A stretch of 10,004 bases of DNA from a virus, in the UHGV virus genome UHGV-0113281, one strand, 5' to 3'. The position numbers were made by a program, and so were the translations under genes. Below are positions 2,537-7,946 of the stretch, in pieces. The number at the start of each line of letters is the position of its first letter. Position 1 is the stretch's first letter. The notes under the pieces are model-generated. The model searched no databases, was not told the origin of the DNA, and saw only the letters and a program-made list of their open reading frames with translations.

Positions 2537-3472
2537 TCAGTAGCGATGCAGTGAAGGCGGCAACTCTTTGTTCTTAAGCCTTTCCCATGCCAGAAGGTTC
2601 GTCGGCCCGTCAGGCTCATAAATATCTATATCCCGCGTGTGATTAATTAAAACGCCCCTCGCCCTCCCGATGATATACGAGAACTCATAGCCGTAGTCGT
2701 GGCATATGCCGGAATAGTTCGATTGAATTTGTTTTAGCGCCGGATACAGTTCGCGGAATAATGCCTGTGAGCGGTTGGCATAATCCCATAACCATACAAG
2801 GCTGTTTGCTTCTTTTGCAGAAAGCTCGTTGGTTTTCTTCTCTTGTTTGCCAATGAACTCACCTTCAAGTGGAACTCGAGCTGCAAGTGACAGTGCTTCT
2901 GTAAACTGCTCCTCACTGATTTCTTTGTACGAACATCCAAAATGGGATTTCAGTGACGACCACATGGTAATCATTGCCTTCGCCTGTTTTTCTTTTGGCA
3001 GAGACTGACCGCGACTCATGACGAGTTGTTTAATGGCTTCCTGCTGTTCAGTGGTGATTTTACCCGGCAACGCCTTTTTAGCTTTGCGTGGGTTAACTAC
3101 ATGGCCTTTAGTCCAGTAGTCATGCAGCACGCTAAAGCATTCCTCCTGGTACTGAATCAGTTTATCACGGATGTCAGCACGAACTTTCTCAGGGTTGATG
3201 CTGAACAGCCATCCATTGAGTTTCTTCAGCGGTATGCATAAAAGCTTACGTAACTTGCCATCAGCGGCAACCATAGAGATATCTCTACAGTTGAATTTGT
3301 CCTTCATTTTACGCAACTTAACAGATTGACCAGTCCAGTCTATACCAATGTTTTCCACAATTTGACGCATCGCTACATAAGTCACTCCGGCAGCCACAGC
3401 GGTTAAAATCTGCTGACCATTGAAAGGCACGTAAGAGGTGTTCACTGCTTCTAAAATTGCTATACTATTCAT
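2537..3472 (-). CDS. ant: P22-type antirepressor Ant (P22_AR N- and C-terminal domains), 311 aa from the ATG at 3472; the ORF track extends to a TTG at 3502
   Basis: The N-terminus [46 protein letters not shown] is the characteristic Ant N-domain. It sits downstream of arc-like and opposite mnt-like, as in the P22 immI region. The ATG at 3472 has a GGAG about 10 nt upstream. Confidence 0.8.
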
Positions 3473-3545
3473 GTTGGTTTTTCTCCAAGGATTTACCGAC
3501 AACCGAAGCCCTGACTGTTACAGCAGTTGGGGCTTCAACTTTTAT
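3473..3545 (+). ncRNA. Candidate sar-like antisense RNA covering the ant translation-initiation region (about 70 nt)
   Basis: Seen in sequence: plus-strand extended -10 TGcTATACT (3458-3466), giving a start near 3473; plus-strand hairpin GAAGCCC...GGGCTTC (3505-3536) followed by AACTTTTAT (3537-3545). Established knowledge: P22 ant is controlled by the roughly 69-nt antisense sar RNA, which is transcribed opposite to ant and pairs with its ribosome-binding site. The call is inference from architecture only. Confidence 0.3.
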
Positions 3546-3726
3546 CAGCGCCTTCAACTGGAATACTCTCTAGCTTTTCATCTAACCCCTTCTCGCCATG
3601 CATGAAAATAACAATATCTGTAACGCATGAGTCACAAATTGCTTCTTCGGTATTTTTTGACACAACAAAGCCCCTTCCAGTCGTTTCTTTACTACACCCA
3701 CAAAAACAACATCTGCGGTTTTTCAT
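3535..3726 (-). CDS. Small (63 aa) ClpX-type C4 zinc-finger protein, inserted between arc-like and ant
   Basis: The translation MKNRRCCFCGCSKETTGRGFVVSKNTEEAICDSCVTDIV matches the ClpX N-terminal zinc-binding domain pattern (CxFCG ... ICDxCV). A strong Shine-Dalgarno (GAGGGGG) lies 7 nt upstream and the ATG overlaps the arc-like stop (ATGA). Confidence 0.6.
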   Translation of the reverse strand: MKNRRCCFCGCSKETTGRGFVVSKNTEEAICDSCVTDIVIFMHGEKGLDEKLESIPVEGADKS

Positions 3727-3875: not shown

Positions 3876-3984
3876 ACCGCCACCATGTGAGTTATTGTGA
3901 ATCACAAACATATCACTGTGACTATATCAAGTCAAAATTTTTTTGAATACACTGTGATATCAATGTGATTATCACGGTGTAAGT
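3876..3984. promoter_or_regulatory. Divergent arc / mnt control region with clustered palindromic operators
   Basis: Seen in sequence: a 109-bp intergenic region with eight TGTGA / TCAC half-sites, including the palindromes TTGTGAaTCACAA (3895-3907), TCACtGTGA (3913-3921) and GTGATtATCAC (3965-3975), plus direct repeats of TGTGAT (3954, 3964). The Pmnt promoter could not be placed confidently. Confidence 0.5.
3907..3935 (-). promoter_or_regulatory. Candidate Pant-like sigma70 promoter for the arc-ZnF-ant operon
   Basis: Seen in sequence: on the minus strand, -35 TTGACT (plus 3935-3930), a 17-nt spacer, and -10 TATGTT (plus 3912-3907). The spacer contains the palindrome TCACtGTGA, matching the known placement of the Arc operator inside Pant in P22. 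Confidence 0.45.
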
Positions 3985-4239
3985 ATGACGAAGGTTAGAG
4001 ACATAGCCCCATATAGCGTAAGAATGCCAGATAGCCTCAAGCGCGACCTGACCATAAGAGCATCGAAAAACGGACGCTCATTAAATTCAGAAATAGTTAT
4101 GATCTTGCAAGCTGCTATTGATGAAGAAAAATCACCAAGATCAATAGAAGGTTTTGCTCAACAAGAATCTGAAAAATTTAGGGAGGCTCTTCTTAAGACT
4201 CTCAGTAGCATGTACGGAGAAGATAAAAAACCCACCTGA
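3985..4239 (+). CDS. mnt: Mnt-like ribbon-helix-helix repressor
   Basis: The 84-aa translation (..YSVRMPDSLKRDLTIRASKNGRSLNSEIVMILQAAI...LLKTLSSMYGEDKKPT) aligns along its length with P22 Mnt (83 aa; RMP...NGRSMNSE...DLYKKTT). It is divergent from arc-like and has a GGTG Shine-Dalgarno 5 nt upstream. Confidence 0.8.
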   Translation: MTKVRDIAPYSVRMPDSLKRDLTIRASKNGRSLNSEIVMILQAAIDEEKSPRSIEGFAQQESEKFREALLKTLSSMYGEDKKPT

Positions 4240-4249
4240 CGGCGGGTTT
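4226..4249. terminator. Hairpin terminator shared by the convergent mnt-like (+) and YafO-like (-) genes
   Basis: Seen in sequence: AAACCCACC-TGAC-GGCGGGTTT; on the minus strand the stem has one G-U pair and is followed by UUUUUUAUCUU. It overlaps both stop codons and is the stronger terminator in the minus direction. Confidence 0.5.
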
Positions 4250-4697
4250 AGTCAAACATAGTGTTTCTAAAGTCTCTCGCATACCCTGCTAACACTCTCA
4301 TTCTATTATGATTGTTAGCAGACATGTGAGCTACAGGGTGAAAAAGAGCAATCAATGAATACCTGTTCTCATCAAAAAGATTTTGTGCATAAACGAGAGC
4401 GGTATTGGATGTTTTATGCCACTGCAACTTTTGCGGTGTGCTGATATCTGTGCCATTTTTTATTGGCTCAAATTTATTTTCACCAATTGCTAAATGAAGG
4501 TGCATAAGACCTGCATCTTCAATATCAGGAGGCCGATGATAAGAGGTGTCTCTGCCAAAATAGCTGGGCAACGTTCCCGTAGACTTGTAGATGATAAAAT
4601 CATCTACAAGTGTTTGTTTTAAATCAGGAAACTCAACAAAAACCGGGGAGAAAAAATAGTCAAAACTATCCTGATTATATTCCACGGTTACTTGCAT
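4248..4697 (-). CDS. YafO-family toxin homolog (type II toxin-antitoxin toxin; ribosome-dependent mRNA interferase family)
   Basis: The 149-aa translation shares conserved blocks with E. coli YafO as I recall it: DFIIYKSTGTLPSYFGRD, MHLHLAIGEN, QKLQWHKTSNTALVYAQNLFDENRYSLIALFHP, NNHNRMRVLAGYARDFR. It starts 8 nt after the stop of the upstream gene. Confidence 0.7.
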   Translation of the reverse strand: MQVTVEYNQDSFDYFFSPVFVEFPDLKQTLVDDFIIYKSTGTLPSYFGRDTSYHRPPDIEDAGLMHLHLAIGENKFEPIKNGTDISTPQKLQWHKTSNTALVYAQNLFDENRYSLIALFHPVAHMSANNHNRMRVLAGYARDFRNTMFD

Positions 4698-4705
4698 GTT
4701 TTACC

Positions 4706-5272
4706 TCAGTGGAAGTTACCAGAGTGAAACACACGAGTCCCGTGCTCAGCAAGCGCACGCAAACCAGCCATATCTACGGAACTATCAAAAACAACCGGAA
4801 CACATGAGCGTTGTTTAATAAGACTATTCAGGTTAGTTACGGCAGATCTAGCATCAGCAACAACGATATAGATATCTCTTGCGATCTCTTTAAAATCAGC
4901 AGAAGCTTCTTTGAATACCGATTTCATTGCCCCTTCAAGTCCTCTCAATTGATGCTCTATCAATCGAGACTTTTCTGGTTCAATGATAGACAACACATTG
5001 TCTACATTCTCATCGGTAGCGTTTGCAAGAACACGATAAGCGTATTTCAGCATTCGAGACAATTCTTTAATCGAAGACACCGCCTCATGAAGCTCATCAT
5101 TAGCCCGTTCACTGCTGAATGAGGATTGATGGTAAGCGTGCTGAACGTTATCAGTAACAACCACCTCACAACTGAACGCAGAAGCTTGCTGTAATAGCAA
5201 ACCTATTGCGACTCCAGCTTTGGCAGCGTTCAAGCTAAACATTTCATCAATCCCATTAGTCTCATTGCTCAT
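4706..5272 (-). CDS. Unrecognised 188-aa protein, upstream partner of the YafO-like toxin (putative antitoxin or immunity component)
   Basis: Seen in sequence: a consensus Shine-Dalgarno AAGGAGG lies 5 nt upstream of the ATG at 5272 (the ORF track's 5302 start is an upstream extension). It appears mostly helical, with no ribbon-helix-helix, helix-turn-helix or Phd/YefM-like motif I can recognise. It is much larger than the canonical YafN antitoxin (about 97 aa). Confidence 0.65.
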   Translation of the reverse strand: MSNETNGIDEMFSLNAAKAGVAIGLLLQQASAFSCEVVVTDNVQHAYHQSSFSSERANDELHEAVSSIKELSRMLKYAYRVLANATDENVDNVLSIIEPEKSRLIEHQLRGLEGAMKSVFKEASADFKEIARDIYIVVADARSAVTNLNSLIKQRSCVPVVFDSSVDMAGLRALAEHGTRVFHSGNFH

Positions 5273-5447
5273 ACAAACCTCCTTCTTATCGGAGATTATC
5301 AATAGCTATGTATCCATTGAATACACGCTATGCGCAGTAATTCTACGTCACGTGATATCATTATGCAACCACCGTTCTATCACCGACTAACTTTACTCCC
5401 ACTCCTATACATCATCTGGTATCCTGCTCAAAACTAAGGAGGTTGGT
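5273..5447. promoter_or_regulatory. Divergent intergenic control region between the TA-like cassette (-) and the 109-aa gene (+)
   Basis: Seen in sequence: minus-strand -10 GATAAT (plus 5300-5295) with a weak -35 TTCAAT (15-nt spacer), about 20 nt upstream of the Shine-Dalgarno; the perfect palindrome TCACGTGA at 5348-5355; and a strong plus-strand Shine-Dalgarno TAAGGAGG (5435-5442) for the 109-aa gene. Confidence 0.3.
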
Positions 5448-5777
5448 GTGCTTGAATGGTTTCTGTTGGCTGCATTAGTCGTTTCTGGTTTGGTGTATGA
5501 GTATCGAATGCACTCTCTAACAAAAAAAATAGGAATTCTAGAAAACGAATATTGTGCTCTCAAATCCTCACTGGAACGTGAGCAAGGGGACTTAAAAATC
5601 TCTCTGTCTAGCATTGAGCGTTCTATAGAGAGCTTAGAGGATAAGGTTGATCGTATAAAGAATGAGGATATTCATGATATTAAGGACGACATATCCTTCT
5701 TAAAATCTTGGTTGAAAAATGTTGGGAAAATTGCCACATCAACACGAGATAAGCTCAATCCATCCATGGATGACTAA
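5448..5777 (+). CDS. Small bitopic membrane protein with a coiled-coil region (109 aa); candidate superinfection-exclusion or accessory protein
   Basis: GTG start with TAAGGAGG 5 nt upstream. N-terminal hydrophobic helix (LEWFLLAALVVSGLVY) followed by a heptad-like charged segment (LENEYCALKSSLEREQGDLKISLSSIERSIESLEDKVDRIKNE). It occupies the slot after the gp16-like gene where P22 carries sieA. Confidence 0.6.
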   Translation: MLEWFLLAALVVSGLVYEYRMHSLTKKIGILENEYCALKSSLEREQGDLKISLSSIERSIESLEDKVDRIKNEDIHDIKDDISFLKSWLKNVGKIATSTRDKLNPSMDD

Positions 5778-7946
5778 TTACTCCTGTGCCATTCCGCTTA
5801 GCGATGCCACAATTCCAGCTCTTGCTAAACGCTGGAACTCTTCGTTTCCTAGTGCCTCGCGTATTGCTTTTACGGCGGCCTTATTTGCCATAAATCTGCG
5901 TTCCGCCGCCGCTAATGCACCATCACTTGCCCCAACCTTAACTGCCTTTGTTGCCTCTTGAACAGCCTTTTCAATAGCGTAACGACCGCTTCTAGTTGCG
6001 GATAATTTCGCTATCGCTCCTTTTGCCATTGCATCAATTGCCCCACCTGCAGCGCCACCCGCTATTGCTCCAATGACGCCTCCTCCAGAGAACCCTGCGA
6101 TAGTGCCAATAGTTCTAAAAGCGCCAGACAATGCGCTCTCTAAAACTGGATGAAGGCCATTCTCAAGAGTGCTAATGGCTGGCATAGATCGCCCTGTCTG
6201 TTCAACATATCGAAGTGGCTTTGTTGCTGCTCGTGCAAGTTCTCCGTATGAACTTGTAATCCTGCCAAGATCTGGAGAATATCGACTAATTGCCTTCACG
6301 TTTTGTGGGGTAAGAATAGTCGCGATATGCTTAATTCCAGCCTCTTCAGACTTACCTCCGCGTACCCCTTGCGACATTGCATCTTGTAATATTGATGCAA
6401 TTGCTGGCGCGCGTTCCGACTCAGGTAGGGCGCTTATTATTTTATGGAACTGACCTGTTCCACTTTTTGCTGAACCCTGTAACGCCTTAGATCCATTAGT
6501 TACCAACTGATCAGTTGCAAGGTCTCTACCAAACGCTGCTTCAGCCTGTTCTTGTGCTGTAAATCTTGCCTTTGACAGATCATTAGCTTTTTGCCAGTCA
6601 TCAAGAAAACCGCCATTTTGAGCCATTATGCGCATATCTTCCGTTGCTGCATCACGAAGCTCAGCCATGCGCCTTGCCGTATTTGCCTCACCAGACCTTA
6701 TATACTTCTGCTCTGCGTCAGCAAGTTTACTTCGCCATGCCTTCATGGCATCAAACGTGATTCCTTTTTTACCAGTTTTAGCATAAGCAGATGCGAATTG
6801 TTTCATCTCAGGAGTTAGCGGCATGCCAGCCAAAATATCACCCTGAATTGTAGCGTTCAGGTTTGACATTCTGGCCTTTGCGTCAGGCATCGTGGAGCGG
6901 ACGCTATCCCATGCAGCCTTTTCTGAATTTTTCATTTTATCAATACTTGCCAAAACCCTTTGTTTTATGGCTGCACTTTTTTCTGATGCAGTTCCTGCTT
7001 CAGCCCCAAACTCATCCAATGCTGAGTTAAATTTCGACTCTATTTCACTGAATGCTTTGGTGTGTGCATCCTGTGTAATTCCGGGCTTTGACGCCAGAAT
7101 CCCCTCCGCCTGAGCAAGACCACGACTACCTGATCTCATGCCAGGAGTTAATGCGTTGATATCTATTCCAGCAGTATCTGCTGCTTTTGCTATTTCGTCT
7201 GACACATTAGCTGACTGTCTGGCAATAATCTCTCTTCCTGTACCAGACTTTGCCATTTTCGAAACATCAGCAGCGGAATTTATTGCCCCGCCACCAAGAA
7301 CTTGAGGTGATTTAGAGGTTAAGATCCTTCCAGCCCCAGAAAGTATCCCCTGAGCACCAATATTGATACCACCGTTAATGGCAGCATTTTGTGCAAAATC
7401 ACCCTCCTGATTTGCAGCATCAGCAAGAGAACCGGCAATCATGTTACCTGCGGAACCGATGTCTCCTGAGAGCTTTGCTGGCGCTCCAGCAGCTTTTGCT
7501 GCTGTGCCAATTGGCAGGAGGTACCCACCAATTGTTTCACCGGCTTGCGCGTAAGGGTCTGTCGGTCGATCGACTGGACGATAGACATCATCCAATACTT
7601 TTGGCCCACCAAGCCCCTGACTGATTGCATTAATCAGACTTGCGCCACCCTGCAATACGTCAAATGGTATGTTTACCAGACCACGACCAGCCTGTTCTGC
7701 AATTTGCCCTGCACTTTGACCACCAGTGAGCCAATCGCCAGCTTGTTGCATCAATGATGGTTCTTCTTTCTGCTGCTGAGGCGGAGGGTATGCTGCATAA
7801 AACTGATCTCTTGCTTCAGCCCATTTGTCACCAGCCTTAGGGGCAACAACCTCATCAAAATATTGCGCTTGAGCCTGTGCTTTCTGTTCTTCAGTTAACG
7901 CCTGATACTGTGGAGAAGCGATAACATCTTTCCATGCTTTAGCCAT
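5778..7946 (-). CDS. Putative ejection / internal virion protein, P22 gp16-like (722 aa)
   Basis: Last and largest of three consecutive Ala/Gly/Gln-rich low-complexity proteins, located immediately before the immI-like module, matching the P22 7-20-16 order. Start overlaps the upstream stop (TAATG). The call rests on synteny and composition. Confidence 0.5.

Follow-up and report, generated by a model that had tools for sequence, protein, structure and literature searches.

The window analysed here is a stretch of 10,004 nucleotides (nt) from the virus genome UHGV-0113281, and it is part of a P22-like Escherichia coli prophage. On its minus strand, between a gene for a gene-16-type DNA transfer protein and a convergent gene for an Mnt-like repressor, lies a compact cassette of two small genes: one encodes a protein of 188 amino acids (aa), hereafter the partner (5272–4706, counted from its ATG), and the other a 149-aa toxin of the YafO family (4697–4248). 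Both sets of limits are taken from open reading frame (ORF) calls, and a TTG at 5302 would lengthen the partner to 198 aa. An original prediction for this DNA had placed two genes 8 nt apart at 4248–5272, which is exact. In RefSeq the partner corresponds to WP_000064337.1 ('hypothetical protein') and the toxin to WP_001198454.1 ('type II toxin-antitoxin system YafO family toxin'). An identical pair (at least 99% identity) is found in 55 of 5426 complete E. coli genomes, and carriers of the cassette include APEC O1, S88 and the E. coli type strain ATCC 11775. Since the pair is conserved in dozens of other loci, both genes are, on comparative grounds, genuine and not chance ORFs.

The two genes meet at a coupling junction (4698–4708, minus strand), where the partner stop codon TGA (4708–4706) is followed by an 8-nt spacer, GGTAAAAC, and then by the toxin ATG, so that the full junction reads CAC-TGA-GGTAAAAC-ATG; the ribosome-binding site of the toxin, GAGG, overlaps the partner stop codon. 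The Shine-Dalgarno sequence that had been predicted for the cassette is a strong one, AAGGAGG at 5284–5278, ending 5 nt before the partner ATG. The predicted terminator is likewise present on the minus strand (4228–4249), as an intrinsic terminator with a GC-rich stem of 9 base pairs (bp) and a T-run (−14.5 kcal/mol; z = −3.1 against shuffled sequences), which begins inside the toxin stop codon (TAA, 4250–4248) and overlaps the 3′ end of the convergent mnt-like gene. The partner Shine-Dalgarno sequence is itself predicted to pair within a 7-bp leader hairpin (AAUCUCC-N8-GGAGGUU; 5276–5297, minus strand) that appears in both the minimum-free-energy and the centroid folds, the leader having z = −2.4. 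Recurrence of the same pairing in a divergent 190-aa clade of cassettes, where ACUCC-N10-GGAG is conserved, suggests that translation of the partner may be under control through its paired ribosome-binding site.

A promoter had also been proposed, and here only a weak candidate, recognised by eye, could be sustained: a sigma-70-like TTGCAT-17-TAGAAT on the minus strand (5340–5368; TTGCAT at 5368–5363 and TAGAAT at 5345–5340), with 8/12 matches to consensus. Its hexamers are kept in a cassette of 74% identity (L014), but it scores too low to be called in the promoter scan, in which the sole minus-strand match lies farther upstream (5563–5535) and promoter-like matches across the region are no commoner than in shuffled sequence. 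Two further candidates for structured elements were set aside. An inverted repeat of 15 nt (5270–5284 and 5436–5450, 87% complementary) is not a structural element; its arms are the near-identical ribosome-binding sites and starts of two divergent genes, AAGGAGGTTTGTATG for the partner and AAGGAGGTTGGTGTG for a 109-aa ORF on the plus strand. A perfect 13-bp hairpin within the toxin ORF (4583–4611, 3-nt loop, −16 kcal/mol, encoding LVDDFIIYK) is probably incidental, being confined to the narrow clade of the window: it is reduced to 8 bp in a toxin gene of 87% identity and is absent from more distant toxin genes. Cassettes of the 190-aa clade (L003, L005, L016, L018, L019, L022–L024 and L026) share a promoter-like element about 130 nt upstream of the partner gene, with a near-perfect palindrome, TTGCTCAnnnnTGAGCAA, across the −35 region. 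After this palindrome come a leader hairpin and T-run (for example GCCGAAGC-N6-GCTTCGGCCTTTTTGT), with some compensatory changes, and then a conserved GTCAGAGGTACTCC. The whole looks like an operator combined with a leader terminator or attenuator, and it is absent from the cassette in the window.

Membership of the toxin in the YafO family (part of the RelE/ParE superfamily with its BECR fold), as originally proposed, was confirmed by a profile check, in which it matched Pfam PF13957 (YafO_toxin) with E = 3.4e-22 and 78.9 bits (gathering cut-off 25) over profile positions 3–101 of 101. It is 38% identical to E. coli K-12 YafO over 120 aa (E = 7e-20) and has no sequence match among solved structures. 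Seventeen residues are invariant across the toxin subclade and K-12 YafO, and these include His66, His68, Glu110 and His124, which are candidate catalytic residues; about 14 additional N-terminal residues (VTVEYNxxSYxYFF) are not found in K-12 YafO. By homology, the protein is a putative mRNA endoribonuclease that would stop translation.

The partner had been described as unrecognised, and it remained so after profile and structure searches, which returned no known antitoxin or DNA-binding family or fold. There was no significant match in Pfam or NCBIfam, including to profiles of the Phd/YefM type or of any other antitoxin, no sequence similarity to any chain in the PDB, and nothing in a BLASTP comparison with K-12 YafN (E = 36). 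It does match phrog_8416, a family of unknown function. The family has few members: 6 clusters among 5.8 billion proteins in a word-indexed search, 23 cluster representatives in a full profile search of 1.84 billion representatives, and 17 members with a broader profile, 'hypothetical' wherever their source names them. Those with a named source are from E. coli, Salmonella, Enterobacter, Rahnella, Providencia, Proteus, Leclercia, Pantoea and Pseudomonas aeruginosa.

An AlphaFold2 (AF2) model of the partner is all-helical, with a predicted local distance difference test score (pLDDT) of 73. A hydrophobic N-terminal helix of moderate confidence (residues 16–38) leads into a disordered linker (36–53) and a three-helix bundle (54–156, pLDDT about 90), after which a short linker precedes a helix of lower confidence (168–183) lying within a conserved helix and tail (165–188). 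The structural matches to this model are generic long-helix bundles (MukF, syntaxin, FlgN and STAT, at 16% identity or less), from which no function was deduced. The most conserved stretches are residues 11–35, 100–122 (QLRGLEGA), 138–156 and 165–188 (HGTxVFxSGxFH), so that both termini are highly conserved yet modelled with low confidence, while the helical core is modelled with high confidence. The hydrophobic N-terminal segment is conserved across the family with the motif G-[VIL]-L-x-[QV]-[QP]. In the window protein this segment has Kyte-Doolittle means of 2.5 over 9 residues and 1.6 over 19 residues, is followed by ASA|F and is preceded by an acidic n-region. A conserved Cys35 had raised the prospect of a lipoprotein, which was rejected because the preceding residues (AFS, AIY, AIP or ALH) do not fit a lipobox.

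The partner is closely linked to the toxin. Locus scans were run with narrower alignments, the broad alignments being too diverse. Among viral contigs, a search based on the partner found the toxin directly downstream in 19 of 19 loci; in the reciprocal search, based on the toxin, the partner was upstream in all 21 complete loci. The next gene encodes a PF13957 protein in five out of five cases even for distant relatives of the partner (about 20–30% identity; Proteus, Pantoea/Leclercia, P. aeruginosa and metagenomes), and a partner-family gene stands directly upstream of a YafO-family gene in every readable neighbourhood, Salmonella included. The pair is also present in the sequenced phages HK639 (gp17/gp18), PhiR40_1 and P. 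aeruginosa vB_Pae_U9, and in the Klebsiella phage-plasmid pJN2-26, whose upstream proteins match the partner hidden Markov model with E-values from 1e-57 to 3e-13. On these comparisons, the partner family accompanies this YafO subclade without exception, always immediately upstream, a strict linkage that the original prediction had missed along with the signal-peptide-like N-terminus discussed below.

The junction itself is conserved, with the form TGA-GGT(G/A)nnnn-(A/T)TG and a spacer of exactly 8 nt in 29 of the 32 loci fetched (not all of them independent), among which the toxin start codon is often a weak TTG. Pairwise identities among partners and among toxins are closely correlated (Mantel r 0.90, a value reached in none of 5000 permutations), and in 97% of comparisons the partner has diverged further than the toxin, the usual pattern in toxin-antitoxin pairs. 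Taken together, the conservation of the toxin, the faster evolution of the gene before it and the close coupling of their translation are what usually marks out a type II toxin-antitoxin operon, and the cassette has the generic features of such a system besides: two small co-directional genes with the partner upstream, a single upstream ribosome-binding site and a single terminator.

The cassette also behaves as a discrete unit of cargo. Among contigs that bear it, homology spans 4223/4225–5450; in prophages with the same flanks and other cargo, homology ends at 4249 and resumes at 5411. The mobile unit (4225–5450) thus comprises the terminator, the toxin and partner genes and 178 nt of upstream leader and promoter DNA, with the terminator forming one edge, where prophages whose cargo differs retain its 25-nt motif. 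Phage vB_EcoP-611R6 and several E. coli prophages have flanks more than 98% identical to those of the window and different cargo between 4250 and 5410, which may be a gene for a P63C-domain protein (322 aa), a PanA (SocA/Panacea) antitoxin gene with a 139-aa gene after it, or a set of three small hypothetical genes. The SocA/Panacea gene and the 139-aa gene, the latter with a weak PADLOC match to NsnC, have the order and orientation of the cassette genes. To judge by these alignments, the slot between gene 16 and mnt in P22-like E. coli prophages is a cargo hot-spot, with other cargo lying for example at 2020–2887 of L037 (E. coli STEC346), 1790–2758 of L038 and 2856–3824 of L002, and the same flanks carrying different cargo support the view that the cassette is horizontally acquired and swappable. 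Self-containment and horizontal acquisition had both been proposed, the latter from a contrast in guanine-plus-cytosine (GC) content; it is the exchange of cargo between near-identical flanks, and not GC content, that bears them out.

Elsewhere the cassette is found between Q antiterminator and holin genes, inside tail operons (including that of HK639) and beside integrases; in P. aeruginosa prophages it directly follows a CI-like repressor gene on the same strand. These are typical sites of accessory genes ('morons'). In APEC O1 a gene for a ClpP-like protease (178 aa; Pfam CLP_protease, 2e-11) separates the toxin from the mnt-like gene, its orientation convergent with that of the cassette (L065 3416–3952, equivalent to NC_008563.1 2577393–2577929). 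This gene is absent from the window, and a phage-borne ClpP homologue beside the pair may be relevant to antitoxin turnover.

We think it reasonably probable that the region is a mobile, bicistronic operon of type II-like toxin-antitoxin character, bringing a new antitoxin family and carried as accessory cargo, in the variable slot between gene 16 and the immI (mnt-arc-ant) region, by a P22-like E. coli prophage, and the partner is most likely the cognate neutraliser, or antitoxin, of the YafO-family toxin. In such a system the partner would be made first, from its strong ribosome-binding site, and the toxin in smaller amounts, its translation being coupled through the conserved 8-nt junction. 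The partner would bind and mask the toxin, probably by means of its conserved and poorly ordered C-terminal helix; segments of this kind are typical of those parts of antitoxins that fold on binding. A fall in the pool of partner would then free the toxin, and its mRNA endoribonuclease activity would arrest translation. Since the unit fills accessory slots in many unrelated temperate phages, and follows the repressor in P. aeruginosa, the likeliest benefit is plausibly exclusion or abortive infection of other phages, with stabilisation of the prophage as the alternative. An abortive-infection or defence role, which the original prediction had put forward, is thus a hypothesis drawn from genomic context.

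Several results weigh against the toxin-antitoxin interpretation. The partner has no recognised DNA-binding domain or fold, leaving classical autoregulation unsupported, and the palindrome TCACGTGA in the candidate promoter (5355–5348) was rejected as an operator, not being conserved in the 74%-identical cassette L014. The toxin scores 79 bits against the NCBIfam YafO equivalog NF007377, below the cut-off of 153, and is therefore to be regarded as a family homologue and not an orthologue of K-12 YafO; its AF2 model, built from 15 sequences, has a pLDDT of 53 and is too poor for a fold search. In PADLOC-DB v2.0.0 the toxin has no match and the partner only a 14-bit, coiled-coil-type match to the tail of ZorA (E = 0.004). 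Distant relatives of the partner, moreover, have an N-terminus resembling a cleavable Sec signal peptide, with n, h and c regions and AXA-type sites, which sits badly with a cytosolic antitoxin; examples are MNPFNAITFAALCGPLACPAAMA|QEF in PhiR40_1 and ...KLATLCGVLAQPGAMA|ETF in P0038, with others in P0031–P0038 and in P. aeruginosa proteins.

These signal-like N-termini lead to a different picture, in which the partner is exported or anchored in the membrane rather than acting as a simple cytosolic antitoxin, and control of the toxin is tied to the envelope or to Sec export; the pool of neutraliser might be drained by export, for instance, or a membrane-tethered complex might sense the entry of phage DNA. 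Conservation of the hydrophobic N-terminus fits this picture, as do the textbook signal regions of distant relatives and the arrangement in the AF2 model, where an N-terminal helix and a disordered linker precede the confident bundle. The protein in the window fits it less well: its n-region is acidic (net charge about −2), its hydrophobic run is short and broken by QQ, and the lipobox rule is not satisfied. An invariant GLL-Q at 34% overall identity is also unusual for a mere signal peptide, and the proteins from Pantoea/Leclercia (P0040) and Klebsiella pJN2-26 lack a hydrophobic N-terminus and nevertheless keep their linkage to the toxin. We regard an exported or anchored partner as unlikely. 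Slightly more doubtful still is the specific proposal that the neutraliser carries a working export or membrane signal, and that Sec export or insertion into the membrane, in place of proteolysis, sets its cytosolic pool, or else that the toxin is held at the inner membrane; either way, release of the ribonuclease (RNase) would respond to what happens at the envelope, for example the ejection of phage DNA or damage to the membrane. To our knowledge, control of a toxin through export or membrane targeting of its antitoxin has not been described for type II systems, and if the signal-peptide-like N-terminus were functional it would represent a new way of controlling a toxin.

Other explanations concern what the module is for. 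It may be a genuine toxin-antitoxin module that serves only selfish addiction or prophage stabilisation and has no effect on other phages, which we judge the less probable purpose while giving it appreciable weight. The architecture, a compact unit with its own signals, is that of the classical addiction modules of plasmids and prophages, a relative resides on Klebsiella phage-plasmids, where stabilisation is expected, and PADLOC returned no match; set against this, the slots occupied by the cassette hold cargo of an exclusion or defence type in related phages (sieA in P22, the PanA pair), and in P. aeruginosa prophages the cassette directly follows the repressor gene on the same strand, both of these being matters of context only. 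A role in the lytic programme, with the YafO-like RNase shutting off host mRNA or processing late transcripts and the partner as a cofactor or timing device, would suit a cassette that comes straight after gene 16 and shares the strand of the late operon. Between gene 16 and the partner gene (5778–5272) the minus strand showed no terminator, so that late transcripts could read through into the cassette, and in HK639 and other phages the cassette lies inside tail operons in the same orientation. Yet it is dispensable cargo, missing from sister phages with the same flanks; it has its own upstream region and terminator; and its gene order, tight coupling and faster-evolving upstream gene follow the toxin-antitoxin pattern. 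A lytic function is accordingly the most improbable of these accounts, and we place little weight on it.

In the wider window, the minus-strand order runs from the ejection genes 7, 20 and 16 to the cassette and then, past the convergent Mnt-like gene, to Arc and Ant. The genes adjoining the cassette belong to the flanks. The gene-16-type DNA transfer (ejection) protein (5778–7946, minus strand), named 'DNA transfer protein' in matching records, is the last late gene upstream of the cassette and is on the same strand. The Mnt-like, Arc-family repressor gene (3985–4239, plus strand; Pfam Arc, 7e-9) is convergent with the toxin gene, and its product is 33% identical to P22 Mnt (E = 1e-13). The conserved 109-aa ORF (5448–5777, plus strand; WP_000895335.1), divergent from the partner gene, encodes an N-terminal membrane helix and a coiled coil, belongs to phrog_5962 (function unknown), and adjoins gene 16 whichever cargo fills the slot.

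GC content is 40.7% in the whole cassette, 47.8% in gene 16, 40.4% in the mnt-like gene and 37.9% in the 109-aa ORF, and the AT-rich zone (approximately 3900–5850) is wider than the cassette. The hand counts given in the original prediction (38.3% at 4261–4320 and 53.3% at 6001–6060) are exact, but the contrast drawn from them was overstated: adjoining genes that are not cargo are equally AT-rich, and GC content is weak as proof of horizontal acquisition, for which the comparison of exchanged cargo was used in its place.

Other features of the window lie apart from the cassette. In its first 2500 nt, the minus strand has genes of the nin-region type directly after the immI antirepressor gene (2537–3502), namely a KilAC antirepressor (1740–2468), DUF1364 (1450–1740), RusA (1091–1453) and an ORF in the position of a Q antiterminator (337–981). 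The window lacks the tailspike gene found after ant in P22 and in other prophages that carry the cassette, and among complete E. coli genomes the best match in a single place covers no more than 64% of the window. Together these features suggest a rearranged or recombinant prophage. A 63-aa ORF between arc and ant (3535–3726, minus strand; phrog_7150, function unknown) has a CxxC...CxxC pattern and a weak match to a ClpX-type zinc finger (E = 0.2); equivalent small genes in related prophages are labelled 'hypothetical'.

Searches of the literature on YafO with defence or prophages, on the WP accessions and PHROG identifiers, and on HK639 and PhiR40 found no study of this pair. The discovery of a new antitoxin family is not unusual in itself; what appears to be new here, from comparison of sequences, is the pairing of a YafO-family toxin with a family of phage-borne partners that had gone unrecognised, and this putative antitoxin family could be entered into annotation resources for toxin-antitoxin and defence systems. 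Its nearest characterised counterpart is the YafN-YafO pair of E. coli K-12, which has a homologous toxin with conserved His, Glu and Tyr positions and the same order of partner and toxin across a very short gap. In contrast to YafN, the cassette partner is unrelated in sequence, twice the size, all-helical and equipped with a hydrophobic N-terminus, and while the K-12 pair belongs to the SOS operon dinB-yafN-yafO-yafP, the cassette is phage cargo.

Within P22-like phages the natural comparison is with sieA, which encodes a single membrane protein that blocks DNA entry and does not act through an RNase. The original prediction had equated the position of the cassette with that of sieA, and as regards the slot this holds: P22 carries sieA and orf59a between gene 16 and a homologous mnt, in the same phage group. 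The equation fails for orientation, however, since sieA is on the mnt strand and the cassette on the strand of gene 16 and the late operon, and it is the 109-aa ORF that has the sieA-like position and orientation. Neither the partner nor the 109-aa ORF resembles SieA, the first having no sequence similarity to it and the second no alignment with the P22 protein. The PanA (SocA/Panacea) pair of E. coli STEC346 offers another parallel, its PanA gene and 139-aa gene sharing the slot, strand, order and flanks of the cassette, although the window partner lacks a Panacea domain and the 139-aa gene of STEC346 is not YafO-like. That pair illustrates the exchange of toxin-antitoxin cargo at the gene 16–mnt site, and the cassette adds a further type of cargo to a slot whose known or likely occupants (sieA, PanA pairs) have exclusion or toxin-antitoxin functions.

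Relatives of the pair have been recorded elsewhere under other descriptions. In phage PhiR40_1 (PV340560), one of the distant clade whose N-terminus clearly resembles a signal peptide, the upstream protein (179 aa) matches the partner profile (E = 1e-43) and the downstream protein is 40% identical to the window toxin; the GenBank labels 'YafM antitoxin' and 'YafO toxin' are database labels only, for which we found no supporting paper or experiment, and the first of them is the sole public sign that anyone has interpreted the pair in this way. Surveys of P. aeruginosa prophages list YafO as a toxin found alone (PMC10449497, PMC12066637). The 'orphan' YafO toxins of P. aeruginosa belong to the same wider subclade as the toxin described here, and in P. 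aeruginosa loci a partner-family gene is found directly upstream. Prophage YafO toxins that have been reported as lone thereby gain a candidate antidote, across the Enterobacterales and Pseudomonas.

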